Shown here piece by piece: positions 10,888-48,284 of a stretch of DNA of 64,000 nucleotides (within the stretch, counting starts at the first letter, position 1; the number at the start of each line of letters is the position of its first letter). This DNA is from Escherichia coli (GTDB lineage Bacteria; Pseudomonadota; Gammaproteobacteria; Enterobacterales; Enterobacteriaceae). Under the pieces are notes generated by a model that worked only from the letters and a program-made list of their open reading frames with translations, had not been told where the DNA came from and did not search any database. The DNA is taken from NCBI RefSeq assembly GCF_011045215.1, contig NZ_CP049201.1; one strand, given 5' to 3'. The position numbers and the translations under genes were made by a program.

Positions 10888-12428
10888 AAATCCGTTCGCA
10901 AGTCGGCATGGTGCTTAATCTCGATAAATGTATCGGCTGCCATACCTGTTCGGTGACCTGTAAAAACGTCTGGACCGGACGCGAAGGCATGGAGTACGCA
11001 TGGTTTAACAACGTCGAAACCAAACCGGGCATTGGTTATCCGAAAAACTGGGAAGATCAGGAAGAGTGGCAAGGCGGCTGGGTGCGTGATGTGAATGGCA
11101 AGATACGCCCGCGTCTGGGCAACAAGATGGGCGTAATAACCAAAATCTTCGCCAACCCGGTGGTGCCGCAGATTGATGATTACTACGAACCTTTCACCTT
11201 CGACTACGAACATTTGCATAGCGCACCGGAAGGCAAACATATTCCTACTGCTCGCCCGCGTTCACTGATTGACGGCAAACGGATGGACAAAGTGATCTGG
11301 GGGCCAAACTGGGAAGAACTGCTGGGCGGTGAGTTCGAAAAACGTGCCCGCGACCGCAACTTCGAGGCCATGCAAAAGGAGATGTACGGGCAGTTTGAAA
11401 ACACCTTCATGATGTACCTGCCGCGCCTGTGCGAACACTGCCTCAATCCCAGCTGCGTGGCGACCTGCCCAAGCGGCGCTATCTACAAACGCGAAGAAGA
11501 CGGCATTGTGCTGATTGATCAGGATAAATGCCGTGGCTGGCGTTTGTGCATAAGCGGTTGTCCGTACAAAAAAATCTACTTCAACTGGAAAAGCGGCAAG
11601 TCAGAAAAATGCATCTTCTGTTACCCACGAATTGAGTCCGGTCAACCGACCGTGTGCTCAGAAACCTGCGTGGGTCGCATCCGGTATCTGGGCGTGCTGC
11701 TTTACGACGCCGACCGCATCGAGGAAGCGGCGAGCACCGAGCGCGAAGTTGACCTCTATGAACGCCAGTGCGAAGTGTTCCTCGATCCACACGATCCCTC
11801 AGTGATCGAGGAAGCCCTGAAACAAGGTATTCCACAAAATGTGATTGACGCTGCCCAGCGTTCGCCAGTCTACAAAATGGCGATGGACTGGAAACTGGCA
11901 CTACCGTTGCACCCTGAATACCGCACCCTGCCGATGGTCTGGTACGTTCCTCCGCTGTCACCGATTCAGTCCTACGCAGATGCGGGCGGTTTGCCGAAAA
12001 GCGAAGGCGTGCTGCCCGCCATCGAAAGCCTGCGTATTCCGGTGCAATATCTCGCCAATATGTTGAGTGCCGGCGATACCGGTCCGGTACTGCGGGCGCT
12101 GAAACGGATGATGGCGATGCGCCACTATATGCGTTCACAAACCGTGGAAGGCGTTACTGATACTCGTGCCATCGACGAAGTAGGCCTGAGCGTCGCCCAG
12201 GTCGAAGAGATGTATCGCTATCTCGCCATTGCCAACTATGAAGATCGTTTTGTTATCCCGACCAGCCATCGGGAAATGGCGGGCGATGCCTTCGCAGAAC
12301 GCAACGGCTGCGGTTTTACCTTTGGCGACGGTTGCCACGGTTCGGACAGTAAATTCAACCTGTTCAACAGTAGCCGTATCGATGCCATCAACATCACCGA
12401 AGTGCGCGACAAAGCGGAGGGCGAATAA
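10884..12428 (+). CDS. narY: Nitrate reductase 2 beta subunit NarY (Fe-S)
   Basis: 514 aa with ferredoxin-type Cys clusters (CIGCHTC...C); start overlaps narZ stop. Confidence 0.93.
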   Translation: MKIRSQVGMVLNLDKCIGCHTCSVTCKNVWTGREGMEYAWFNNVETKPGIGYPKNWEDQEEWQGGWVRDVNGKIRPRLGNKMGVITKIFANPVVPQIDDYYEPFTFDYEHLHSAPEGKHIPTARPRSLIDGKRMDKVIWGPNWEELLGGEFEKRARDRNFEAMQKEMYGQFENTFMMYLPRLCEHCLNPSCVATCPSGAIYKREEDGIVLIDQDKCRGWRLCISGCPYKKIYFNWKSGKSEKCIFCYPRIESGQPTVCSETCVGRIRYLGVLLYDADRIEEAASTEREVDLYERQCEVFLDPHDPSVIEEALKQGIPQNVIDAAQRSPVYKMAMDWKLALPLHPEYRTLPMVWYVPPLSPIQSYADAGGLPKSEGVLPAIESLRIPVQYLANMLSAGDTGPVLRALKRMMAMRHYMRSQTVEGVTDTRAIDEVGLSVAQVEEMYRYLAIANYEDRFVIPTSHREMAGDAFAERNGCGFTFGDGCHGSDSKFNLFNSSRIDAINITEVRDKAEGE

Positions 12429-13123
12429 TGCAGATCCTCAAAGTGATCGGCCTGTTGATGGAGTATCCGGACGAGCTGTTGTGGGAATGCAAGGAGGACG
12501 CGCTGGCGTTGATCCGCCGCGACGCGCCGATGCTTACGGATTTCACCCACAACCTGCTTAACGCGCCGCTGCTGGATAAACAGGCCGAATGGTGCGAAGT
12601 GTTTGACCGCGGGCGCACTACGTCGCTGCTGCTGTTCGAACATGTTCATGCCGAGTCCCGCGATCGCGGCCAGGCAATGGTGGACCTGCTGGCGGAGTAT
12701 GAAAAGGTCGGCCTGCAGCTGGATTGTCGGGAACTGCCCGATTATCTACCGCTGTATCTGGAGTATTTAAGCATACTGCCTGACGATCAGGCGAAAGAAG
12801 GATTGCTCAATGTTGCGCCGATCCTCGCCCTGCTTGGCGGTCGCTTAAAACAACGCGAGGCACCGTGGTACGCGTTGTTTGATGCTCTGCTGCAACTGGC
12901 GGGAAGTACACTTTCAAGTGACAGTGTCACAAAACAAGTAAACAGCGAAGAGCGCGATGACACCCGCCAGGCGCTTGATGCAGTGTGGGAAGAGGAACAG
13001 GTGAAGTTTATTGAAGATAACGCCACGGCGTGTGACAGCTCGCCGCTTAATCAATATCAGCGACACTTTAGCCAGGATGTCGCGCCGCAGTATGTCGATA
13101 TCAGTGCGGGAGGTGGGAAATGA
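12428..13123 (+). CDS. narW: Nitrate reductase 2 assembly chaperone NarW
   Basis: 231 aa, [18 protein letters not shown]; position in operon. Confidence 0.9.
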
Positions 13124-16687: not shown

Positions 16688-16978
16688 GATTGTGCTCCTT
16701 TTGAAAGATGTCAGTAAAATTAACACACATTGTGAATGTCGTATGTCCGGTGATGCGTTTTTACGACAATAATGCCTACTTGAAATTGTAGATATTTGCA
16801 CTACACCCTTTTAAATAAAGCACCAACAAATCGTCAACTTGCAGAACATATTCTTCTGCCTACATACCATTAAGAAAACATCAAGTTTCCGACTTGCCAA
16901 TTTATTAATGCCCATTATAGACGCTGAAACAAGCCACGGACAAAGAAGATGCCAAAATTACCGGCGATGCAGAAAAAC

Positions 16979-17350
16979 TCAACGAACCAGGGCAAGATTA
17001 CGAAAGCCCGCTCCCGCAAGGACTGACGCCAGATAGTTTCTGTCCATGGCTGCTTTTCGCATCTTACGTCTTAACCCTGCCTTGAATACCTTATCATTCG
17101 TCAAAATATTAATAGCAATGTGCCGTATCCCTGAAAATAATTCTGCAGCATTTCCTCTTCTTATTTTGCAGTCGTCTTCATTCATTACCACGTCCAGACG
17201 CCAGTGCAGCTTATTCTCCACGTGCCAGTGGTTTCGGATTGCTGTGGCGAACTTCTCTGCGGTTAAATCAGCAGAACTGATATAATATCTGACCGTCATT
17301 TCTGGCTCTTTCTTTTGTTCTGCTATTATTGACCGAAAGGAGACTGCCAC
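16979..17350 (-). mobile_element. Truncated H-repeat-associated (ISAs1-family) transposase remnant, C-terminal 123 aa only
   Basis: [30 protein letters not shown] is the conserved C-terminal DDE region of H-rpt/ISAs1 transposases (K-12 ydcC/yncI lie at the equivalent place). The N-terminal two-thirds is missing. Confidence 0.7.
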
Positions 17351-17667
17351 GCATAATTTCTTCAGTCCTTTCCATTCAAACGTGAAATCAATAAGTTCAT
17401 CAGGGACATCGCAAACAATATGAAGACGGATTTCTTCTCTGCCGTGACTAAAATGCGAATTATTTAGTACAAAAAAAGCGGCGCACCTTGTTCTTTCCCA
17501 GATTCCTAATATGGCAACTTTAAGTTATCGCCGTCTATACTTATAGAAATTTCATCAGGGGTGACGTAAATAGAATTTTTTTCATCCTCAATTGCCCATA
17601 ACTGATTAATAAAAAAGTATTTTTTTCATCTAATAAAAAATTATCACATGTAGTAAAATTATTAATA

Positions 17668-18327
17668 TCAAAAAAAATCATCAGCACAATTAATTTTTAA
17701 ATTTAAAAAATAAAGAAAAATATTATTGATTGATTTGAGTGTAAACCACTTGTCATTAACAAATTTATAGCCAGATGATTTTATAAAATAATAATTATCT
17801 CCTGGTATAAAGGCATACATATCATTTAAGGTTATACTCAACAAAAAACTACGACCTGGTTTAATAGTATTCCACCGTTCAGGATTCGTATTAATTTCAA
17901 AAGGACATGAACCACCTAAGTAGTCCAACGTGATATTCCCAGAGTTGATTCTGAATGGTTTTTTGCATATCGCATCATATTCATCTCCTTTTCCATCTTT
18001 TACTTTCATAGGTAGATAATATTTAGAAAAAAAATACGTGGTAGAGCTATTGTTAGTAAAGGTTATGTTAGCAAAAATCCTGTTATTTTTTTTACTCATA
18101 GCTAATTGAGCATTGACATCCGCTATATAATTTATATGATTACATTTTTTCTTACACTCATCATAATTTTCGATAGGATAAATTAATGGCCTTCCTTTGA
18201 TATCTCTCTCAAGCCCAAACCCGTATTTTTTTATTAAAACCATTTCATCCGCAGTCGATTGAAAGGAATAGAAAAATATAATATTTACGATTGTCATTAT
18301 TATGATTTTTTTTATAGCTTGCAGCAT
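17668..18327 (-). CDS. Hypothetical exported protein (219 aa) with N-terminal signal peptide; AT-rich island ORF
   Basis: Hydrophobic N-terminus IIIMTIVNIIFFYSFQSTADE; strongly AT-rich; no family recognised. Confidence 0.45.
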   Translation of the reverse strand: MLQAIKKIIIMTIVNIIFFYSFQSTADEMVLIKKYGFGLERDIKGRPLIYPIENYDECKKKCNHINYIADVNAQLAMSKKNNRIFANITFTNNSSTTYFFSKYYLPMKVKDGKGDEYDAICKKPFRINSGNITLDYLGGSCPFEINTNPERWNTIKPGRSFLLSITLNDMYAFIPGDNYYFIKSSGYKFVNDKWFTLKSINNIFLYFLNLKINCADDFF

Positions 18328-18350
18328 TAATATATTTCTCGACTTATTAG

Positions 18351-18653
18351 TTAATGGAGAAGTGCTTTTTCTAATTCCGCTATTTTTTTCTTAACTGAAT
18401 TGCTTAATATTTCATCATTAATCGAGTCTATCTCACTTTCAATTAATCTTATTTCAAAATATCTTTCTATGTTATATGCATTCTCAAATATTTGATCTTT
18501 TTGTTTAGAGATCAGTTTAGTTGCAATACGGATATGTTCGTCATATGAAACTTCATCCTCTTTGCACGTTGAATATTTATCAGTAGTTGTATAATTCTGT
18601 GACCACATACCACCTTTTTTATTATCCCCATAATACCACTGAATATGAGACAT
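18351..18653 (-). CDS. Hypothetical small protein (100 aa), candidate immunity or accessory protein
   Basis: ATG at 18651-18653 with GGAAAGGA upstream; AT-rich; inside the VgrG island. Confidence 0.4.
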   Translation of the reverse strand: MSHIQWYYGDNKKGGMWSQNYTTTDKYSTCKEDEVSYDEHIRIATKLISKQKDQIFENAYNIERYFEIRLIESEIDSINDEILSNSVKKKIAELEKALLH

Positions 18654-18691
18654 TTCATGACATAAAGTAGCAACATGAGAATCCTTTCCCG

Positions 18692-19141
18692 TTACTGGAT
18701 TTTTTTGCCATCTCTATACTCAAATTTTGCGCCTATGTTAATTATATAGGGCATATCCTTACTTGGGCTGACGAATGCTGCAAATTCATTACAACCTGTA
18801 TAATTTATAAAACTGCTCATTGTTAAATCATTAGCTATAATCATTAATCTTCTCACACCATCCATCATAAGAAATCTAGCATTCATGCGCCTAACTGTAT
18901 TATGTCCATATTTTCTTATATTAACTTCCTTATTTCCTTTAACACCAAAGATCTTACTGAAATCATATTCCTCCTGTGCTCCCCATCTCAAAAGATCATC
19001 TGCTCTTTTTATCAAAACCAACTTTTGTGCCTTACGAACCTTATCAATCATTATTTTAAAATGATCAGTTATTTTTTGCTCTTTCACACATTCTTCTGGC
19101 TCTGGCTTTGGTTGTCCAGAAGTTTGATTATTATCGTCCAT
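18692..19141 (-). CDS. Hypothetical protein (149 aa from the ATG with an RBS; the longest ORF runs to 19198)
   Basis: GGAAGGA then ATG (MDDNNQTSGQ...) at 19141; AT-rich; no recognisable domain. Confidence 0.4.
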   Translation of the reverse strand: MDDNNQTSGQPKPEPEECVKEQKITDHFKIMIDKVRKAQKLVLIKRADDLLRWGAQEEYDFSKIFGVKGNKEVNIRKYGHNTVRRMNARFLMMDGVRRLMIIANDLTMSSFINYTGCNEFAAFVSPSKDMPYIINIGAKFEYRDGKKIQ

Positions 19142-19327
19142 AGTGTCCTTCCATTGAGAGAAAATCATCATTCGCAAATAGCAACTAAAAAGCAGCATTA
19201 CTTGACCTTTCCCTGCATAACAATATTTATAAAATAATACGTTTTATGATCTCACCTTGGGCTCCCAACAAGATAATTTCAGTTTTAAAGACTTTCACGA
19301 AAAAATATAGAAATACCTCACCACCCT

Positions 19328-19618
19328 TCACTTACCAATTAATCTCACAGGAAATCCAACTTCCTTACCACAAATACAATCCCAAGTAACATTTCCCAAA
19401 ATTTTTGATACTTTAGGCTGCAATGGCATTATTGACATTATAAATTTATCAAGTTCTTCGCTATATTTAATTCCCTTTATATTTCTTATTATTGATATTC
19501 TAGCAGTAAAGATAGCCGTCTCTCCATCTACACTAAAAGTGTAATTACAATTTTTTGTAATCTCATCAAATTCAACCGATAACAAATCAATATTATGGTT
19601 TGTAAACACTATGCCCAT
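19328..19618 (-). CDS. Putative cognate immunity protein (96 aa) for the upstream T6SS toxin
   Basis: Start overlaps the toxin stop by 26 nt, a typical toxin-immunity arrangement; small and AT-rich. Confidence 0.5.
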   Translation of the reverse strand: MGIVFTNHNIDLLSVEFDEITKNCNYTFSVDGETAIFTARISIIRNIKGIKYSEELDKFIMSIMPLQPKVSKILGNVTWDCICGKEVGFPVRLIGK

Positions 19619-21032
19619 TCCATACCTCCTTAAATTCCTGTTCAGTCATCAGATATCGACTCCCTTGATATGGATCATATATTATCACATTCCCAGCATC
19701 ATCAACACCCTTAACAAGTACCCAATGTCCTACTTTACTTCCAGAATCCCACATCATTGCTCCCCATGAACCAGTATTACTGAGGGCATATAAACTAGAT
19801 TCGCTCACTGCATTCCCTTCCCAGCCGACATCAAATTTATTAAGCTTGTTTGCCAGCGACGTCATAGATGTTAATTCTGTTCCAATTACATTTTGCGTGA
19901 CAAAAATATACCTATCCCTAAGCAACATTTCCCCACAGGCCGCTCCACAGCCTGTTAAAGTCAATTGCTTTATTACATTTGAATCTAAAACCTCATCAAA
20001 TACTGTCCAATTGCCACCAGCACCACCTTCTAAAACTACCGGCTCTACAAATACTTTCCCAGAGATATTTTCTTCTGGTATTTTTGCGGGTATCATAAAG
20101 CCCCATAAAAAGCTGGAAAAATGCTCCAGAGCAATCTGATCACCATTATTTGCATCCATTATCATTTTTTTAAGTGCATCCCATGCTTGCCCATTTATCA
20201 ATGAATCACTAATATTAAATAAAGCCTGTTCTTTTTCGTTTAAATTTATATTTGCCTGTTCACATAACCCATCTTCGCCTATCGGGCAAGCAACCGTTGC
20301 CGTTGCCGTATCTAACAGAGCATCGAATGTAACTAAGGCTAAATCCGCCACACCATGTAAAGTGGTGATTGCTCCATTCCCCATTTGAGTAAGTGTGTTC
20401 TCTCCAAACCATTCTCTAATTTGAGATTTATCTCCTTCAATACCATTCCTGAGAGATTCTCTGATATTCTTTATTGAAAAAAACTCCCCCCATGATTGGT
20501 CAGGATCTTTTATTTGGAATAAATCATTTTTAACCTCAGGTGAAATATCTCCGTCAAAAATATTACCAACAGAGAGGAGATCCTTCAGAAGCAGTAAATC
20601 GTGTATTACTTCAGCAGTCCTTTCATAATTAAAACTTCTATCAATGACAGAAATCATTGGTGATTTTATTTTGGTATATAATTTACCAAGGCAGTTATGG
20701 TTATTAATCCCAACAACTGAACCATGATAAGCAACAGGTTTCCCTTCTATTGTTACAGTCGGACTTCCCGTTAAAATAACACAGTCACCCGTTCCTTGAG
20801 ATGTACCGGATATGACACCTTTACCGGCATTACTTTGAGTTCCAGCAATCACTGAACCAACATTTAAAGCTCTGCATCCACGCGCCCATACCGTTGAACT
20901 GTACTGTCTTTCACTATCTAAAGTCTGGTAACTGTCAAAAGGAACCTTGTAACCTCCTACTTCACATACATCTGGTGAAGTACACACGACTCTAAATCTA
21001 GATTCACCATCCCCGATATGATAGTTACCCAT
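19593..21032 (-). CDS. T6SS polymorphic toxin: N-terminal PAAR-like (DUF4150-type) domain, C-terminal papain-like cysteine peptidase (C39-like) domain; 479 aa
   Basis: N-terminus VCTSPDVCEVGG...GSPTVTIEGKPVAYHGS resembles PAAR-like spike-capping domains. C-terminus has a CGAAC motif at residues 362-366 and GHWVLV...D...IYDP at 436-453, a Cys/His/Asp arrangement like peptidase C39 folds. Follows vgrG and the DUF2169-like gene. Confidence 0.6.
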   Translation of the reverse strand: MGNYHIGDGESRFRVVCTSPDVCEVGGYKVPFDSYQTLDSERQYSSTVWARGCRALNVGSVIAGTQSNAGKGVISGTSQGTGDCVILTGSPTVTIEGKPVAYHGSVVGINNHNCLGKLYTKIKSPMISVIDRSFNYERTAEVIHDLLLLKDLLSVGNIFDGDISPEVKNDLFQIKDPDQSWGEFFSIKNIRESLRNGIEGDKSQIREWFGENTLTQMGNGAITTLHGVADLALVTFDALLDTATATVACPIGEDGLCEQANINLNEKEQALFNISDSLINGQAWDALKKMIMDANNGDQIALEHFSSFLWGFMIPAKIPEENISGKVFVEPVVLEGGAGGNWTVFDEVLDSNVIKQLTLTGCGAACGEMLLRDRYIFVTQNVIGTELTSMTSLANKLNKFDVGWEGNAVSESSLYALSNTGSWGAMMWDSGSKVGHWVLVKGVDDAGNVIIYDPYQGSRYLMTEQEFKEVWNGHSVYKP

Positions 21033-22071
21033 AATATTTTTTCCCTATACATTCAGGAATAATACAACTCAGCACTCCTTCTTTCATTCCAAAAAAATCA
21101 GGTATTGTTAATCTCCAGGTAAGGTATATTTCCTGTCGACTTAAATCGATAACCATTGTATCCGCAACAGGTAAGAACATATGTGATGTATTATGCTTGG
21201 TTTTTAATATAAGTACAGGTCGTATACCTGGCAATTTTGTCTTAACAACCTGTTCAAATTTAAAAAAACCTTCAAGAGAGATGTTTTCATCGCCAGAGAG
21301 AAACCCCGTGTATATCATATCCGGATGAGCACTATTGTAGAACCGCTCATCAAAATCATCCGGCAAATAGGGATAGCGCTTTTCACGCCATACTTCATTG
21401 TAGGTTCCTGCATACTGGAGGCGACTTTTCCACCATCGAGATACAGGGCCAACACCTTGAAAAAAGTCAGATTCCCCATTAAAAATGGTAGCGTTTTCTG
21501 ACAAAGCAGAGCTGGTTATTTGTGGGAGTTTATATTGACAACTTGTATTAAGTTGGGAAATATCAGGATAATATCCACAACCTACAGGGTTTGCTGAAAA
21601 AACCAATTTCTCCATACCATCTGGTTGCCAAATACCACCGTAAGCAAGCTCATAGCGTAGAGGAATATTAATAATTTTATCTGGTAAGCTCATCTGCCAA
21701 CGATTTCGCTCATATTGTAAGTAGCGGACACCAGATAAACTCAGTTCTTTAGAAAAACTATTAACCCTCACACAAGCCTTCCACTGAGACTTATCCCCTG
21801 AAGGGGCATGAGCACTACCTGTCACGTGAATATCTGTATTTCTTTTACAAAGAACTAAGTCTGTTTCAGATTTTAGACTACTTGTTTCAGGCTCCCCATA
21901 GTATTCATCAGACATGGACAATTCTCTTTGAAATTCAGCAAGATCAGCATAAAATCCATTTTTAATTCGCAATGACATTTTAATAGCAATAACATCAAAC
22001 AAAAGACCATAACGACCATATTTTTCAAATGACAACAAAGGAAATGGCGTGTTATTTTTCATTTCTATCAT
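21025..22071 (-). CDS. DUF2169-like T6SS adaptor/chaperone protein (348 aa)
   Basis: Called mainly by context: lies between vgrG and a PAAR-like toxin, and its stop overlaps the toxin start by 8 nt (translational coupling). Confidence 0.5.
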   Translation of the reverse strand: MIEMKNNTPFPLLSFEKYGRYGLLFDVIAIKMSLRIKNGFYADLAEFQRELSMSDEYYGEPETSSLKSETDLVLCKRNTDIHVTGSAHAPSGDKSQWKACVRVNSFSKELSLSGVRYLQYERNRWQMSLPDKIINIPLRYELAYGGIWQPDGMEKLVFSANPVGCGYYPDISQLNTSCQYKLPQITSSALSENATIFNGESDFFQGVGPVSRWWKSRLQYAGTYNEVWREKRYPYLPDDFDERFYNSAHPDMIYTGFLSGDENISLEGFFKFEQVVKTKLPGIRPVLILKTKHNTSHMFLPVADTMVIDLSRQEIYLTWRLTIPDFFGMKEGVLSCIIPECIGKKYYG

Positions 22072-22177
22072 GCTTATTGATCCCTGAATAAGTCATGCTA
22101 TGATTAATTTAAACAATCACAAATGGTGATTCACAGGCGTATAAAGCAAATACAATCACCATGTTTTATATTCTGCA

Positions 22178-24160
22178 CTATCCGTTCAGATGAATATCTT
22201 TTCCTTTAATATCTACAGGACCGGTAGCCTCAAATAGAAACTCCGTCCCCCGTATTATTATCTTTCCTGTTTTCTCCAGTTTTATGGAACAAGTCCCGCT
22301 CTCTCCCTGCCCACAAATTAGCTCAATACTGTCCCCAGATATGATTTTTGTACCATGCTCAACTTTCAGTTCGTAATTATCACCTATTTTAATACTCTGT
22401 TTTTTGACGACTTCTTCGGTATCAGTTCCCGTCACCTTGCTTGTCTGGTTGTTATTCACAACCTTGTGCCGGTCATTTTTTATCGTGAGATGCTGATCGT
22501 TCGCTACCGTCACTTTCTGGTCATGACCACCTTCCTTTTTGCTCCCCACATTCACCGTCTGGCCCTTCACCACCGTTATCTTCTGGTTGTTACCGATGGT
22601 TTCCGTATGGTCATGTTTCACATCCGTTGTCCGGTCGTTGAGCACCTCCGTATCCATGTTCTTCTGGGCATGGATATACACCTGCTCATTACTGGTGGCG
22701 TCTTCAAACCGTAGCTCGTTAAATCCGCTTCCTTTATAGGTTTTTGACCGGATGGTCATCTGCGTCTTCGTTCCCGGCAGGTCGCCCGGGGAGCGGTTAT
22801 CTTCATGGTAGGTCCGTCCCGTGACGATGGGCTGGTCCGGGTCGCCGTTCAGGAAGTCAACAATCACCTCCTGGCCCACCCGCGGTATCGCCAGGTTACC
22901 GAACCCCGGCCCCGCCCACGCCTGCGATACCCGCACCCAGCATGAACTCGCCTCCGTCATCCCGTGATAACGGTCCCAGTGGAACTTCACCCGTACCCGG
23001 CCATGTTCGTCGCAGAATATCTCCTCACCCTTCGGCCCGGTCACAATGGCACTCTGCGGCCCGTCCACCTTCGGTTTGCTTTGCAGCCGTGGACGCCACG
23101 TCCGGTCTGCCGGTATCACCTCTAACTGATTTCCCAGCGTGGTTCCCCTCCCCTGGCTGCCGTGCAGCGCCTGCGGCTGGCTTCCTGACAGTATGCTCTG
23201 TACCACCTGCCATTCACGGTTCAGCATCTTCTGCGGATGCCCCGTCAGCGTAAACCGCGTTCCCGGCCACAGCTTCGGTGAATTACTCTGCCCTGTGGCC
23301 TTTTCCGCATCACTGCGCAGGCTGTCCATCTGGTACAGCGTGAAATCCTTGCCGTGCTGCTCATCCTTGAACCTTCCCGGATAATCAAATATCTCGTACT
23401 GCGCCAGCTGTCCGTTCAGGTTCTCACCCTGCTGCTCATACATCCCCGGCCAGTCCGGCACCTTAAACGTGTAATCCTGACTCTGCACCGACGACGGGCG
23501 GACATGCGCCTCATAACGGAACGTACTGAGACACTCCGTCTCCGCTCCTGCCGATGTGTCCGGGTTAAACGGAAGCTCTCCCGCCTGTGACAGCCCCGCC
23601 ACATCGTCGCACAGCGTCAGCTTCTGCTCCGGGCTGTCCGCCGCAAACCGCTCAAAGAAGAAAATCCCCTCCTCCGCCCACAGCCGCGCCAGAAACGCCA
23701 GGTCGCTCTCTCCGTACTGGACACAGAACTCCCGCGCCGGATGGTCTTCATAAAACAGCGGCGTCCACTCCGTGACGCCGTTCTCATTCAGTAACGTGGC
23801 CGATATCGTCCGGATATCCTGCTGCTGGAAGATACGGAAGTTCTGCCGCAGCCCGCACCGCCATAACGGCGGCTCAATACGCAGGTGATAACGCATCTGC
23901 CAGCCATTGTTCTCCTGCATGCCAAAACCCGCCACCACGCCGGTGACATAACGCAGCGGGATGACGCCCTGCCAGATGGTCAGCGTCGCCTTCTTCTCCA
24001 GCAGCATCTCCGCCGTCTGCATAAAAGAGTCGCTGGCAACATCCACACTCATCACAAACGGATATGACTGGTTCTGGATTAACCTGAAGCTCACCACTGC
24101 AAAGGTGTCCGGCTCCTGGCCGTCAACCTCCAGCGTAAAGCGCAGACCTTTTAAGGACAT
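22178..24160 (-). CDS. vgrG: Type VI secretion spike protein VgrG (660 aa)
   Basis: N-terminus MSLKGLRFTLEVDGQEPDTFAVVSFRLIQ and central gp27/gp5-like regions (IFDYPGRF, HWDRYHG, VGQEVIVDFLNGDPDQPIVTGRTYH) are hallmark VgrG motifs. The C-terminal third is AT-rich and repetitive. Confidence 0.88.
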   Translation of the reverse strand: MSLKGLRFTLEVDGQEPDTFAVVSFRLIQNQSYPFVMSVDVASDSFMQTAEMLLEKKATLTIWQGVIPLRYVTGVVAGFGMQENNGWQMRYHLRIEPPLWRCGLRQNFRIFQQQDIRTISATLLNENGVTEWTPLFYEDHPAREFCVQYGESDLAFLARLWAEEGIFFFERFAADSPEQKLTLCDDVAGLSQAGELPFNPDTSAGAETECLSTFRYEAHVRPSSVQSQDYTFKVPDWPGMYEQQGENLNGQLAQYEIFDYPGRFKDEQHGKDFTLYQMDSLRSDAEKATGQSNSPKLWPGTRFTLTGHPQKMLNREWQVVQSILSGSQPQALHGSQGRGTTLGNQLEVIPADRTWRPRLQSKPKVDGPQSAIVTGPKGEEIFCDEHGRVRVKFHWDRYHGMTEASSCWVRVSQAWAGPGFGNLAIPRVGQEVIVDFLNGDPDQPIVTGRTYHEDNRSPGDLPGTKTQMTIRSKTYKGSGFNELRFEDATSNEQVYIHAQKNMDTEVLNDRTTDVKHDHTETIGNNQKITVVKGQTVNVGSKKEGGHDQKVTVANDQHLTIKNDRHKVVNNNQTSKVTGTDTEEVVKKQSIKIGDNYELKVEHGTKIISGDSIELICGQGESGTCSIKLEKTGKIIIRGTEFLFEATGPVDIKGKDIHLNG

Positions 24161-24178
24161 AAATACCTCTCAGACATA

Positions 24179-24463
24179 TCAGCCTATATTTACCGTACCG
24201 CCACCAATGACCACGCCGCCGCAGTCAACAGCATCACCGCTTCTGGCGGCGGGCAGGCCGTCAATAAAGACGGTTGAAGAACCTCTGGCGATTTTACGGG
24301 GATGAGGGGGATGCTTCGGTTTAGCATGCGGCGTCAGCGGATCTCCCTGACGGGCTGCGGGGAGACCATCGATAAAAACGGTGGATGACCCGGCGGTGAT
24401 GACGGTCTCGTAATAACCGTCGTGCTGAGTGCCTTTGTCGGTGAGTTTGGCTGCTAAAGGCAT
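24179..24463 (-). CDS. PAAR-repeat protein (T6SS spike tip), 94 aa
   Basis: Two copies of SSTVFIDGLPAAR(Q/S)GD plus an N-terminal AAKLTD motif; 18 nt upstream of vgrG on the same strand. Confidence 0.75.
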   Translation of the reverse strand: MPLAAKLTDKGTQHDGYYETVITAGSSTVFIDGLPAARQGDPLTPHAKPKHPPHPRKIARGSSTVFIDGLPAARSGDAVDCGGVVIGGGTVNIG

Positions 24464-25002
24464 AATTTCTCCTGTTCAGAATTTCTACAGCAGCAGGTTT
24501 CAAAAATCCGGAGAAATATTCAACGAAATATTAATCACTTCACCGGATATTCTGATACGTACCTTCACTGGTCTATTTAAGTAATACAAATTGTTGGCGT
24601 GTATTAAGTTCCATTTTGTTCTCCTTAATTATGTAAGGAGTATTTGATCATGTATAAGCAATAAAAACAGCTTCAGGAAATAAGGAATATCGCAATTTTT
24701 AAACATAAAATGCGAATCGTTCAATACAAAAAAGCAGCGTTGCGTAATCTTTCCCTGATTAAATACGCTACCGCCCTACCCTGATGACATGATCTGCACT
24801 GCACTATCATATCGACATGTTTCTCTACATGCGAAAAGATGTTTTATTTTCGGATTATATTAAATTGACATTTCATATAAAAAACGAAATTACATCAATC
24901 ATATAAATAATTGTACCAACTTTAATTACTATTCATAGCAAACAAATGGATATCCAGTTAACTACGCCAGTGATTCATTAACATTAACCTCCGGCATTAT
25001 TG

Positions 25003-25620
25003 TTAAATAATGACATTCCTTTTTAATACTTCTTGTAATTTCGGTAACTGACATACTGCATCAGCAATCGCACTGATATTCGTGGCATTATCCTGAAACC
25101 ATTCATGCCCAGGCCCCCATGTGCGCATAGTGCAAAGATAACAGTCCACCAGCGTTAGTTGCTCACCAAACGCATAAGGTTCAGCGGTCAATTGTGAATT
25201 CAGCCAGATATAAAGCGATTTACGATATTCAATAACATTCTTCTTTAACTGTTCAGGTGCGTCAGATGCCCAACGCTCAGGGTAATCGGCGAAAGTGAAT
25301 GTTGGATAGACATTAGCAACCAGCCAGACCAATAGCCGTTGAAACTGCTGACGTTCGGCGCGCCCAACCGGTGGCGCAAGGTCCGGGCGACGATCGAGAA
25401 CCATCAATGCAATCGCCGCTGTCTCCGTCATAATCTCGTCATTTTCCAGAGCCAGTGTCGGAACCTGACACAACGGGTTCAGGGTTTTCAATAACTCGCG
25501 TGAAGTTCCCTCGTGGTCAAAACCACTGACATCAACGAACTGATAAGGAATATCAGCTAGTGTTAGCATCAGCTCACTGATTGTAGAGCCCCATCCGGGT
25601 ACGCCATACACCTTAATCAT
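25003..25620 (-). CDS. yncG: Glutathione S-transferase homolog YncG
   Basis: 205 aa, MIKVYGVPGWGSTISELMLTLADIPYQFVDV (GST N-terminal fold). Confidence 0.85.
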   Translation of the reverse strand: MIKVYGVPGWGSTISELMLTLADIPYQFVDVSGFDHEGTSRELLKTLNPLCQVPTLALENDEIMTETAAIALMVLDRRPDLAPPVGRAERQQFQRLLVWLVANVYPTFTFADYPERWASDAPEQLKKNVIEYRKSLYIWLNSQLTAEPYAFGEQLTLVDCYLCTMRTWGPGHEWFQDNATNISAIADAVCQLPKLQEVLKRNVII

Positions 25621-34770: not shown

Positions 34771-35171
34771 TGTAGTGATTTTGCACGCAGCACGTACTGT
34801 CAGAGAAATCAGTGCTCTGACAGTACGCAAGATCTTCTCATACTCTCCAGGTTTACAACATTATCCTTAATATTTACTTCTTTTTGCTGGTATCTACATT
34901 GAAATGAGTAGAAAACATCCCCCTACTGTCGTCTATACAAACAGCTTACTGATTCAAAGGGAATCTTGTTTTCACATTTTTCTATCATGAATACTTTATA
35001 CGCGCGGGAGTCTATAAATGCTTTATACTTTCAAGGAATAACGTAAATATAAAAAGATGGCGTGAAGTATATGCATGGCAGGATGTTTGCAACCTCCTTG
35101 ATGACGCTGCCCCATTGAAATTGCAAACCCCGCCCTGGTTATCTTGCCCATTTATCATGCAAAACAGATAA

Positions 35172-35981
35172 TTATAGGCCTCTGAATACCTCAGAAAGAT
35201 TGAATTTTTTATAGTCCCTCTCTTGAATATTTCCATTTGAAATCAATCGATTCATCTCTTCAACAAAATAATTTATATCATCACACTTGTTATTATCCGG
35301 AAGATCTGAGTAGTTATAATTCCACCATTTTATTCTCAACAGTTCATCAATAACATTTGAATCAAACCTAAATCTGATTATTTTTGCAGGAACTCCTGCA
35401 ACTATGGCATATGGGGGCACATCTTTGGTAACAACGGAATTGGCAGCAATAACAGCACCATCACCTATTACGATGCCACCTTTCAATACAACATCATTTC
35501 CTATCCAGACATCATTTCCTATAATCGGATTTTCAGGTTTGGTAATGAATGGTTTCAATGTCCAGCTACGTTCAAACTCACTCATAGCAAACTTATCAAA
35601 TTCACCGTTATAAGTCATCATGTGAGTAGTAAAACGATTCAAAGGATGATTTCCACCCATTATTTTTACATTTGATGCAATACTACAAAATCGACCTATA
35701 CGTATATTCCCTGAAAAATGACAGGTCGGAAATGAAAAAGCGCCGACACTGGAGAAATTTTTTACAGGCATTGTTGAATATTCTTCAGCAATAACATTAT
35801 CTTCAATTGTTATCTTGTCACCTTTTGAGAAAAGAAATAAATTCCTTTCTTTATAAGACTTCTTCCCCTTATGATTTAAAAAGATTTTATTATCCATACA
35901 AAACTCAAAGTGTTTTTTCGTCCATCTGAAGGTAAGGGTTTTATTTTTATCTTCCGTGAATTTGTACAATTGAACTTTCAT
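35172..35981 (-). CDS. Hexapeptide-repeat xenobiotic acetyltransferase (XAT family; resembles Vat streptogramin A acetyltransferases / CatB); start uncertain (alternative ATGs would give about 241 or 199 aa)
   Basis: C-terminal block IGNDVWIGNDVVLKGGIVIGDGAVIAANSVVTKDVPPYAIVAGVPAKIIRFRFDSNVIDELLRIKWWNY closely parallels the recalled VatD/SatA core; NHPLNRFTTH His region also present; AT-rich gene. Confidence 0.7.
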   Translation of the reverse strand: MKVQLYKFTEDKNKTLTFRWTKKHFEFCMDNKIFLNHKGKKSYKERNLFLFSKGDKITIEDNVIAEEYSTMPVKNFSSVGAFSFPTCHFSGNIRIGRFCSIASNVKIMGGNHPLNRFTTHMMTYNGEFDKFAMSEFERSWTLKPFITKPENPIIGNDVWIGNDVVLKGGIVIGDGAVIAANSVVTKDVPPYAIVAGVPAKIIRFRFDSNVIDELLRIKWWNYNYSDLPDNNKCDDINYFVEEMNRLISNGNIQERDYKKFNLSEVFRGL

Positions 35982-36190
35982 TGTTAATACTTCTACTTAT
36001 AAATTATTAGTTTAATAACAATACTCTAAAGCCTTATGCTAATCAACTGTGACAGGATGAAAAATCGCCATCAAACATTTAGTCTAATTTTTACGCTAGT
36101 TATTAATGTAATCATTCTAATACTTAACCGCCATTAAACTCAGAACCTAAAACGATAGTGGCCGTCCTATAACAGCCACTAACATCTAAC

Positions 36191-47111: not shown

Positions 47112-48284
47112 ATGCGTCTGTTTTCTGTTCCTCCACCCACGCTACTGGCGGGGTTTCTGGCGGTATTAATTGGCTACGCCAGTTCAGCGGCAATAATCTG
47201 GCAAGCAGCGATTGTCGCCGGAGCCTCCACTGCACAAATCTCTGGCTGGATGACGGCGCTGGGGTTGGCAATGGGCGTCAGTACGCTGACTCTGACATTA
47301 TGGTATCGCGTACCTGTTCTCACCGCATGGTCAACGCCTGGCGCGGCTTTGTTGGTCACCGGATTGCAGGGACTAACACTTAACGAAGCCATCGGCGTTT
47401 TTATTGTCACCAACGCGTTAATAGTCCTCTGCGGCATAACGGGACTCTTTGCTCGTCTGATGCGCATTATTCCGCACTCGCTTGCGGCGGCAATGCTTGC
47501 CGGGATTTTATTACGCTTTGGTTTACAGGCGTTTGCCAGTCTGGACGGTCAATTTACGTTGTGTGGAAGTATGTTGCTGGTATGGCTGGCAACCAAGGCC
47601 GTTGCGCCGCGCTATGCGGTAATTGCCGCGATGATTATTGGGATCGTGATCGTTATCGCGCAAGGTGACGTTGTCACAACTGATGTTGTCTTTAAACCCG
47701 TTCTCCCCTCTTATATTACCCCTGATTTTTCGTTTGCTCACAGCCTGAGCGTTGCACTCCCCCTTTTTCTGGTGACGATGGCATCGCAAAACGCACCGGG
47801 TATCGCAGCAATGAAAGCAGCCGGATATTCAACTCCTGTTTCGCCATTAATTGTATTTACTGGATTGCTGGCACTGTTTTTTTCCCCTTTCGGCGTTTAT
47901 TCAGTCGGTATTGCGGCAATCACCGCGGCTATTTGCCAAAGCCCGGAAGCGCATCCGGATAAAGATCAACGTTGGCTGGCAGCTGCCGTTGCAGGCATTT
48001 TCTATTTGCTCGCAGGTCTGTTTGGTAGTGCCATTACCGGGATGATGGCTGCCCTGCCCGTAAGTTGGATCCTGATGCTGGCAGGTCTGGCTCTGCTAAG
48101 TACTATTGGCGGCAGTTTGTATCAGGCGCTGCATAATGAGCGTGAGCGAGACGCGGCGGTGGTGGCATTTCTGGTAACGGCAAGTGGATTGACGCTGGTC
48201 GGGATTGGTTCTGCGTTTTGGGGATTAATTGCCGGAGGCGTTAGTTACGTGGTGTTGAATTTAATCGCTGACAGAAACCGATAA
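47112..48284 (+). CDS. ydcO: BenE-family transporter YdcO
   Basis: MRLFSVPPPTLLAGFLAVLIGYASSAAIIW; 390 aa multi-TM protein. Confidence 0.85.
   Translation: MRLFSVPPPTLLAGFLAVLIGYASSAAIIWQAAIVAGASTAQISGWMTALGLAMGVSTLTLTLWYRVPVLTAWSTPGAALLVTGLQGLTLNEAIGVFIVTNALIVLCGITGLFARLMRIIPHSLAAAMLAGILLRFGLQAFASLDGQFTLCGSMLLVWLATKAVAPRYAVIAAMIIGIVIVIAQGDVVTTDVVFKPVLPSYITPDFSFAHSLSVALPLFLVTMASQNAPGIAAMKAAGYSTPVSPLIVFTGLLALFFSPFGVYSVGIAAITAAICQSPEAHPDKDQRWLAAAVAGIFYLLAGLFGSAITGMMAALPVSWILMLAGLALLSTIGGSLYQALHNERERDAAVVAFLVTASGLTLVGIGSAFWGLIAGGVSYVVLNLIADRNR

Follow-up and report, generated by a model that had tools for sequence, protein, structure and literature searches.

A probable chimeric type VI secretion vgrG island carrying Cpe1/Cpi1 at the pptA-yncG (RhsE) hotspot of Escherichia coli

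What stands at the RhsE locus of an Escherichia coli chromosome when the rhsE gene is missing, and by what succession of events did it come to be there? The question is raised by a stretch of 64,000 nucleotides (nt) of E. coli DNA (GCF_011045215.1, NZ_CP049201.1), hereafter the window, whose coordinates are used throughout. The window is collinear with K-12 positions 1,547,537 -> 1,487,437, five small segments excepted, and an island occupies the place of the K-12 yncH-rhsE'-ydcD-yncI-ydcC interval that runs from yncG to pptA. Collinearity thus upholds an initial annotation of this DNA (the sequence-only reading), which had described a VgrG/PAAR cargo island of a type VI secretion system (T6SS) at the RhsE locus, flanked by pptA and yncG. 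The region is very probably an auxiliary (“orphan”) T6SS vgrG island at the pptA-yncG (RhsE) hotspot, one that carries the toxin Cpe1 and its antidote Cpi1 and whose sequence points to a chimeric origin. Comparison with relatives places its limits at 16988-25004; the earlier limits, 16979-24463, had to be moved, and a 5′-end fragment of the insertion sequence (IS) ISEc1 was found between PAAR and yncG.

The gene layout first described for the island withstands re-examination. A six-frame list of open reading frames (ORFs) returns every named ORF with unchanged coordinates and minus-strand orientation, the junctions indeed consist of a gap of 18 nt and overlaps of 8 and 26 nt, and profile searches recover the VgrG, PAAR, DUF2169 and DUF4150 domains far above chance. 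The Rhs core (YD repeats) is absent as claimed: K-12 rhsE finds no match within 17450-25004, and no island ORF matches an Rhs profile. What does not hold is the description of the whole block as AT-rich. The PAAR gene (57.5% GC) and vgrG (55.6% overall, 60% in its core to approximately residue 471) exceed the flanks (51-53%), and AT-richness is confined to 17450-22600, where GC content falls to 35%. A promoter and terminator scan upstream of PAAR returned consensus-level matches only (e.g. 24881-24854, minus strand), and these give no evidence of operon structure.

The identity of the cargo is settled by three adjoining genes. The accessory, or chaperone, protein of the DUF2169 family (348 residues; 21025-22071, minus; PF09937, 1.7e-72, profile positions 7-294 of 294) has the gene context of such proteins, with vgrG 106 nt upstream and an 8-nt overlap with the effector gene; it is identical at 344/348 residues to copies encoded at the end of the main T6SS gene cluster in other strains and at 348/348 to those of three draft genomes (L012, L014 and L016). 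The effector gene, cpe1 (= tsaP; 479 codons, 19593-21032, minus), encodes an N-terminal PAAR-like DUF4150/PIPY domain (Tox-PAAR-like, PF13665, 8.2e-12, residues 15-115), then a linker and, at the C-terminus, a toxin domain of the papain-like (C39-type) cysteine protease kind (Peptidase_C39, 1e-5). Residues 337-479 are identical at 143/143 positions to chain A of PDB 9L5U (Cpe1tox), the catalytic C362 is present, and the Cys-His-Asp triad of the toxin domain is in place. Over its full length the protein agrees at 472-473/479 residues with RefSeq copies named cpe1, and its peptide WDALKKMIMDA reads WDALKKMIMDT in TsaP of RS218, an extraintestinal pathogenic E. coli (ExPEC). Directly downstream, and overlapping cpe1 by 26 nt, lies the immunity gene cpi1 (96 codons; 19328-19618, minus), whose product matches chain C of 9L5U at 95/96 residues (E 2.6e-61), with N76 for G76 as the sole difference, and is identical in L012, L014 and L016. 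NCBIfam and PADLOC searches gave no match for Cpe1, Cpi1 or the DUF2169 protein.

By these profile and identity matches, which bear out the DUF2169 adaptor, the PAAR-like toxin with a peptidase C-terminus and the overlapping putative immunity gene proposed at the outset, the toxin is the characterised Cpe1/TsaP and the antidote is Cpi1; the pair is already known and not new. The sequence-only reading was to count as refuted if the interval proved to be an annotated variant with a characterised effector, which it is: in the collection of complete genomes used for comparison (n=5,426) the same genes bear the RefSeq names cpe1 and cpi1, and the same-locus island is itself public. Cpe1 is a papain-like cysteine protease whose toxicity is abolished by C362A; it cuts the ATPase domains of GyrB and ParE at a double-glycine site, thereby blocking DNA relaxation and chromosome segregation, and is neutralised by Cpi1 through competitive binding at the substrate site (Song et al., PLoS Biol 2025, PMC12136450). 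A delta-hns mutant of E. coli ATCC 11775, in which the mutation was introduced to up-regulate T6SS activity, uses Cpe1 in T6SS-dependent competition against MG1655 (PMC12136450), and TsaP of RS218 has the same 479-residue architecture, with a PAAR-like N-terminus and a C39 C-terminus (PMC10434152).

Two spike genes precede this cargo. A canonical PAAR gene (94 codons; 24179-24463, minus) matches NF033420 over its full length (1-94; 156.5 bits against a cut-off of 124) and lies 18 nt upstream of vgrG, features that identify its product as a T6SS PAAR protein. The 24142-24976 segment that includes it is 97-100% identical to EC6868 (L027), by which PAAR is assigned to the locus-resident backbone. 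The vgrG (tssI) gene itself (660 codons; 22178-24160, minus) encodes a T6SS spike VgrG (TssI) that has the gp27-like hub, the gp5 OB-fold and the C-terminal beta-helix of such proteins, with Phage_GPD (1.9e-74), Phage_base_V (5.8e-14) and Gp5_trimer_C (2.3e-21) domains (TIGR03361, 601.3 bits with the cut-off at 186, 1.4e-180). It is chimeric. Its GC content changes near residue 471, an exact-sequence look-up of the protein returned no identical entry, and it differs from the VgrG of L012, L014 and L016 at 5-10/660 residues. The window's exact Cpe1 protein, for comparison, occurs in 61 blocks of public assemblies.

How these parts came together is revealed by alignment with two kinds of relative. 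Such comparison shows the island to be a chimera, in which a 3.35-kb Cpe1 cargo cassette recombined into a resident island of the form PAAR-VgrG(801 residues)-M35-immunity-ISAs1′, where M35 denotes a metallopeptidase-like effector gene. The cassette extends from 19187 to approximately 22541, comprises the vgrG C-terminus (approximately 120 codons), the DUF2169 gene, cpe1, cpi1 and a tail of approximately 141 nt, and shows 99-100% identity to the copy that terminates the main T6SS cluster in other strains. At its upstream junction, sliding identity over 22099-22541 is 98-100% to main-cluster Cpe1 copies (L001/L003) and 27-65% to EC6868; over 22542-22841 it is 90-99% to EC6868 and 82-87% to L003. 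From 22542 through PAAR and the spacer to yncG, EC6868 remains the closest relative (90-100%). The vgrG core (approximately 22542-24160, approximately 60% GC) thus belongs to the resident backbone, and the AT-richer remainder, 22178 to approximately 22541, to the cassette.

The downstream junction is equally sharp. The main-cluster Cpe1 module aligns with the window from upstream of PAAR as far down as 19184, and the M35-type islands align with it from the ISAs1 remnant as far up as 19186. On the cassette side lies the non-coding cpi1 tail (approximately 141 nt; 19187-19327, minus), which is identical, single-base differences apart, to the sequence that follows cpi1 in L003, up to “...GCTGCTTTTT”. 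On the resident side lie the last 44 or so nt of the 801-codon vgrG (19143-19186, minus), as determined by comparison with L027, which has vgrG801-M35, and with the cpi1 tail of L003; vgrG801 natively precedes the M35 gene and overlaps its start codon, so that this 44-nt vestige marks the junction. One crossover fell in the conserved GC-rich vgrG core and the other 44 nt short of the stop codon of the old vgrG. The cassette thereby replaced the C-terminal part of the resident vgrG801 and stranded the M35 effector and its partner downstream without their cognate VgrG, and the orphaned effector was frameshifted afterwards. The GC switch within vgrG would arise because the conserved GC-rich PAAR-vgrG core served as the upstream homology arm. 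These alignments establish the order of events at the RhsE locus. Direct replacement of an Rhs module was considered and rejected, the immediate ancestor being an M35-type vgrG island at the same locus. The earlier proposal that a VgrG module replaced Rhs while keeping the H-repeat consequently survives in one half only: the H-repeat is orthologous to K-12 ydcC, and the immediate ancestor was evidently the PAAR-VgrG801-M35 island.

Two independent rearrangement endpoints were observed elsewhere in the cassette. Both fall inside a 14-nt stretch (20081-20094) that corresponds to Cpe1 residues approximately 313-317, just before the toxin domain: genome A30 diverges at 20081, and a deletion common to O145:H28, 33F4 and ECNB21-M121 ends at 20094/20095. 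This suggests that the boundary between the delivery and toxin parts of Cpe1 is prone to recombination.

The stranded pair downstream of cpi1 was previously listed as three unknown ORFs. These resolve into two genes, a frameshifted M35 effector gene and a signal-peptide partner, because intact 263-residue alleles exist in other genomes. The M35-like (aspzincin) T6SS cargo effector gene (18351-19142, minus) is a pseudogene: an A8 run near 18707, which lies just ahead of the HEMSH zinc motif, has lost 1 nt, and the reading frame is broken into ORFs 18692-19198 and 18351-18653; elsewhere the same stretch forms a single 263-residue gene annotated “peptidase M35”. The frameshift is probably real, because the same A7 state occurs in L009, in L012 and in the closed O145:H28 genome (L006). 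The partner (219 residues; 17668-18327, minus) carries a signal peptide and is predicted to be the periplasmic immunity partner of the M35 effector. Alleles of 247, 263 or 273 residues elsewhere differ by homopolymer length, and the 219-residue allele also stands beside an intact vgrG-M35 pair in EC6868. In the segment that contains both genes (17583-19306), all 12 indel columns among 12 copies fall in A/T homopolymers of 6-9 nt, yielding ORF patterns of 263, 149+100 or 228+85 residues for M35 and of 263, 247, 219, 106+113 and other lengths for the partner. Such indels could be decay, phase variation or sequencing error.

The M35-like proteins form a small family found in Enterobacterales, with the invariant motifs CHExSH and NAYNIERYF. 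In all loci examined (Salmonella, Buttiauxella and an E. coli main T6SS cluster) the M35-like gene overlaps the end of a full-length vgrG and is always followed by a co-varying protein of 266-308 residues with a hydrophobic N-terminus. Behind the M35-like gene, the T6SS loci of Salmonella, Buttiauxella and E. coli encode homologs of the window's partner at 42%, 40% and 25% identity, all with hydrophobic N-termini. In the M35 orthologs an undamaged ORF with HExxH and the aspzincin fold stands right behind its cognate vgrG; the window copy, frameshifted before HEMSH and accompanied by only 44 nt of its cognate vgrG, lacks this combination. The aspzincin fold of the M35 protein was recovered by a fold search and a profile search, a single-sequence PDB search was insignificant, and NCBIfam and PADLOC gave no match; the partner matches no Pfam or NCBIfam family. 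We found no functional study of the vgrG-linked aspzincin (M35-like) family in the literature. For the island as a whole, the gene names should be paar, vgrG, DUF2169 accessory gene, cpe1 (tsaP), cpi1, M35-family effector pseudogene and putative immunity gene.

Remnants of insertion sequences bound the island on both sides. Next to pptA lies the 3′ end of an ISAs1-family element (ISEc1, H-repeat; 462 nt, 16988-17449, minus; NF033564 2e-29, profile positions 241-314 of 314), to which the 123-residue ORF at 16979-17350 belongs through a match to the C-terminal 74 transposase residues. This remnant is 98% identical to the 3′ end of K-12 ydcC, shares its junction with the pptA flank, and is annotated likewise in L004-L006, L026 and L027; from these alignments it is considered orthologous to the pptA-proximal end of ydcC. 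Between the pptA upstream region and the remnant, an AT-rich insertion of 210 nt (16777-16986, 37% GC) was also observed; absent from K-12 and most relatives, it occurs only in L002, L009 and L012, and in L002 is followed by a diguanylate-cyclase gene fragment. At the opposite end, yncH, the neighbour of yncG in K-12 and most E. coli, is missing, and 24464-25004 holds instead a 245-nt spacer specific to PAAR-type islands and the ISEc1/ISAs1 5′-end fragment (approximately 155 nt; 24604-24757, minus), which is 92-94% identical to the 5′ ends of ISEc1 in L003 and of K-12 ydcC and matches ISAs1 transposase annotations genome-wide. Insertion of the cargo into a single IS copy, suggested by the common orientation of the two fragments, was rejected. 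Jointly they account for only about 617 of about 1,291 nt, and A30 carries a pptA-proximal ISAs1 with its own 5′ end in addition to the PAAR-upstream fragment, so that the two fragments in the window derive from two separate IS copies.

The locus is far from uniform among E. coli strains. Sequence comparison reveals the pptA-yncG interval as a polymorphic site for vgrG islands, at which several alleles occur. In p10A the full Rhs allele reads yncG-yncH-vgrG-rhsE-ydcD-ISAs1-ISAs1-pptA, and a full vgrG-rhsE allele is also found in EDL933 (PMC7216683); K-12 RhsE is a deleted remnant of this allele, whose vgrG is only approximately 70% identical to that of the window. The window's adjacency of PAAR and yncG recurs in 686/5,426 complete genomes, and many genomes (e.g. 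EC6868, A33 and CFT073) carry PAAR-VgrG(801 residues)-M35-immunity-ISAs1′ at the RhsE site. A30 combines PAAR-VgrG-DUF2169 with the first approximately 317 cpe1 codons before diverging. A total of 335 genomes contain the cpe1 cargo segment, always as a single copy and in 299 of them nearly complete, and in the complete genomes examined the intact Cpe1 module closes the main T6SS cluster, beside yafV-ivy-fadE. A complete island between yncG and pptA is nevertheless present in several draft genomes (L009-L012, L014 and L016), with identities over 18 kb of 99.7% for L012 (GCA_016672445.1) and 99.3% for L009 (GCA_016674245.1).

Related copies show a range of further rearrangements. O145:H28, 33F4 and ECNB21-M121 lack 20095-22686, PapM-32-1 lacks 21200-23915, and 2018-05-2CC combines an IS600 with a deletion. 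Additionally, in L015 (OU349847.1, 4,970,498-4,991,937) positions 7509-12521 of the extracted locus contain a truncated vgrG (448 residues), DUF2169, cpe1, cpi1 and a partial M35 gene among P2-like phage genes. This segment is 99.3% identical to window positions 18381-23816 and is bordered by Phage_GPA/DUF2732 genes on one side and a portal gene on the other, a reverse-transcriptase gene being close by; it looks like a T6SS cargo and immunity module in the variable region of a prophage.

If the island functions as published work on its homologs suggests, the PAAR-like DUF4150/PIPY domain of Cpe1 would be kept by the DUF2169 protein in a state fit to cap the VgrG trimer, the spike would be fired into neighbouring bacteria by a T6SS whose genes lie elsewhere in the genome, and the C-terminal protease (C362) would cut GyrB/ParE at the double-glycine site, with topoisomerase activity, replication and segregation blocked. 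Cpi1 would shield the producer by competing for the substrate-binding surface. A DUF2169 role in loading a PIPY effector onto VgrG has been shown for the P. aeruginosa and V. parahaemolyticus homologs, where the protein is a chaperone keeping DUF4150 (“PIPY”) domains competent to cap VgrG (PMC11883445). The five ORFs of the offensive module are full length in the window. Silencing of the island by H-NS is plausible, given the AT-rich cargo and the delta-hns donor of the published assays.

Several observations weigh against an auxiliary island armed in this manner. None of the T6SS core genes (tssA-M, hcp, clpV) lies in the 64-kb window, and the T6SS that firing needs would have to be encoded elsewhere. 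The PIPY-type motif of Cpe1 is KVPF (residues 29-32), which fits P(I/V)P(Y/F) at 3/4 positions, the first Pro being replaced by Lys. A canonical PAAR and a PIPY effector surround one vgrG, and either could cap the spike. RhsE-locus relatives in complete genomes are mostly deletion derivatives, a sign that selection for the offensive genes may be weak at this site. Finally, the cassette may have moved from the main cluster to the RhsE locus or the other way.

Against this background, how do other explanations of the locus fare? That it is a novel VgrG/PAAR island with a new peptidase-like toxin, which replaced the Rhs module of RhsE and kept the H-repeat, is highly improbable. The gene order and domains are as that proposal described, an Rhs core is lacking, the H-repeat is the ortholog of ydcC, and no complete RefSeq genome has an intact island at the locus (at least 80% of the region is covered in 1/5,426, and that copy is degraded). 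Yet its toxin and immunity protein are the crystallised Cpe1/Cpi1 and match TsaP, intact same-locus islands exist in draft assemblies, the immediate ancestor was apparently of the M35 type with a vgrG well removed from that of the Rhs allele, and 17450-25004 contains no Rhs-core remnants. Considerably less far-fetched, though still unlikely, is the idea of a functional relic whose compatible T6SS is absent or silent and whose only selectable function is immunity: cpi1, possibly together with the M35 partner, would guard against competitors armed with Cpe1 or M35. Every degraded variant examined (L002, L004, L005, L006 and L026) has kept cpi1 intact and lost offensive genes, namely vgrG, DUF2169 or the Cpe1 N-terminus; in the window the partner ORF persists beside a frameshifted M35 effector. 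The lack of T6SS core genes in the window agrees with such a relic, as does the killing by ATCC 11775, which was assayed in a delta-hns donor, if the AT-rich cargo is indeed silenced by H-NS. What counts against decay are the five full-length offensive ORFs and the complete identity of DUF2169, Cpe1 and Cpi1 in L012, L014 and L016, with few VgrG differences, a conservation that fits recent spread or purifying selection.

The state of the M35 pair invites another explanation, in which homopolymer sequencing errors account for the split gene and the shorter partner ORF, and the island contains two working effector-immunity pairs. The confinement of every indel among the 12 copies of this 1.9-kb segment to A/T runs of 6-9 nt lends it some colour, as such indels are the typical error profile of some sequencing platforms. 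We consider it improbable: the A7 state near 18707 recurs in independent assemblies, one of them closed, the M35 split is annotated likewise in several complete O145 genomes, and even an intact M35 effector would be without its cognate 801-residue VgrG, of which 44 nt are left. The auxiliary, chimeric Cpe1/Cpi1 island remains the reading that we favour. A wider interpretation, which we put forward tentatively and would rate somewhat below an even chance, joins three elements to it: that M35 and its signal-peptide partner represent an experimentally uncharacterised, periplasm-acting, vgrG-linked T6SS effector-immunity family of Enterobacterales; that the island is an unusually clean record of displacement, with its 44-nt vestige and vgrG-core crossover; and that the PAAR and PIPY tips may compete or alternate on one spike. 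None of these parts (the M35 family, the displacement record or the two tips) would constitute a new kind of system, even if true.

Outside the island, other segments of the window also differ from K-12. An intact OmpC/OmpF-family porin gene of 366 codons (1509-2609; NF007841, 497.6 bits against a cut-off of 484) is present where K-12 has yddL/yddK fragments only; the non-K-12 segments around it are 1793-3329 and 3656-4290, and a nearby ORF of 222 codons (3369-4037) matches no family. Right after the patD stop codon lies a 1.3-kb insertion relative to K-12 (34877-36189), whose ORF at 35172-35981 (minus) encodes a 269-residue hexapeptide-repeat acetyltransferase that is Vat/CatB-like, with all scores below curated cut-offs. 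At 48283/48284 the K-12 IS609 (1,503,161-1,504,908, insQ) is absent, and the flanks join cleanly.

Placing the island among known systems shows how little of it is unprecedented. With Cpe1-Cpi1 of ATCC 11775 (PMC12136450; PDB 9L5U) and TsaP of RS218 (PMC10434152) it shares the toxin domain, the 479-residue architecture, the upstream PAAR-VgrG-DUF2169 genes and the overlapping immunity gene. The differences are of location and detail: the window copy lies between pptA and yncG, whereas those examined in complete genomes stand at the end of the main T6SS cluster; Cpe1 has 6-7 substitutions in its N-terminal two-thirds, and Cpi1 the single exchange at position 76; and the module is followed by the orphan M35 pair, in contrast to the ISAs1 element that directly follows the main-cluster copies. 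The arrangement of vgrG, a single-domain DUF2169 gene and an effector with N-terminal DUF4150, joined by tight or overlapping junctions, corresponds to “synteny type B” (Sachar et al., JBC 2025, PMC11883445), from which the window departs in its KVPF motif and in the canonical PAAR gene 18 nt upstream of vgrG, DUF2169 genes rarely adjoining PAAR genes (PMC11883445). RhsE, in K-12 and in the full vgrG-rhsE-ydcD-H-rpt allele of p10A and EDL933 (PMC7216683), has in common with the island the yncG-pptA site and an orthologous pptA-proximal ISAs1/H-repeat end, and the full allele follows the same logic of a vgrG succeeded by a polymorphic toxin and immunity gene. The window lacks the Rhs/YD core, yncH and ydcD, and its vgrG is of another lineage, so that of the features of RhsE the H-repeat on the pptA side is found and the Rhs core is not.

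The stranded effector can likewise be set beside characterised enzymes. Aspzincin/M35 metalloendopeptidases such as the Grifola peptidyl-Lys endopeptidase (1G12), AsaP1 (2X3A) and deuterolysin (1EB6) are 15-20% identical to the M35-like family, which differs from them in its vgrG linkage and its pairing with a signal-peptide partner; the window copy is, in addition, frameshifted. New content is only mild and consists of the reconstruction of cassette displacement and the vgrG-linked aspzincin family. The relevance of the locus lies mostly in correct annotation and in offering a tidy example of E. coli T6SS cargo swapping at the RhsE hotspot, in which recombination in a vgrG core would install a new toxin cassette and strand the previous effector-immunity pair, with homopolymer frameshift decay to follow. 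As the undeleted form of loci that are degraded in O145:H28 and other strains, the window could help to reconstruct effector repertoires and to interpret orphan cpi1 genes.

Displacement of this type has precedents. At rhs and contact-dependent inhibition (CDI) loci, displacement of C-termini leaves orphan toxin-immunity modules behind, and effector modules are swapped in vgrG auxiliary clusters. By analogy, the cassette in the window appears to have entered through a conserved GC-rich upstream core and to have left the old pair without a delivery domain and decaying. The island would differ from those loci in that the recombining core is vgrG rather than rhs or cdiA, and in that the displaced effector is a separate M35 cargo gene, not a fused tip.

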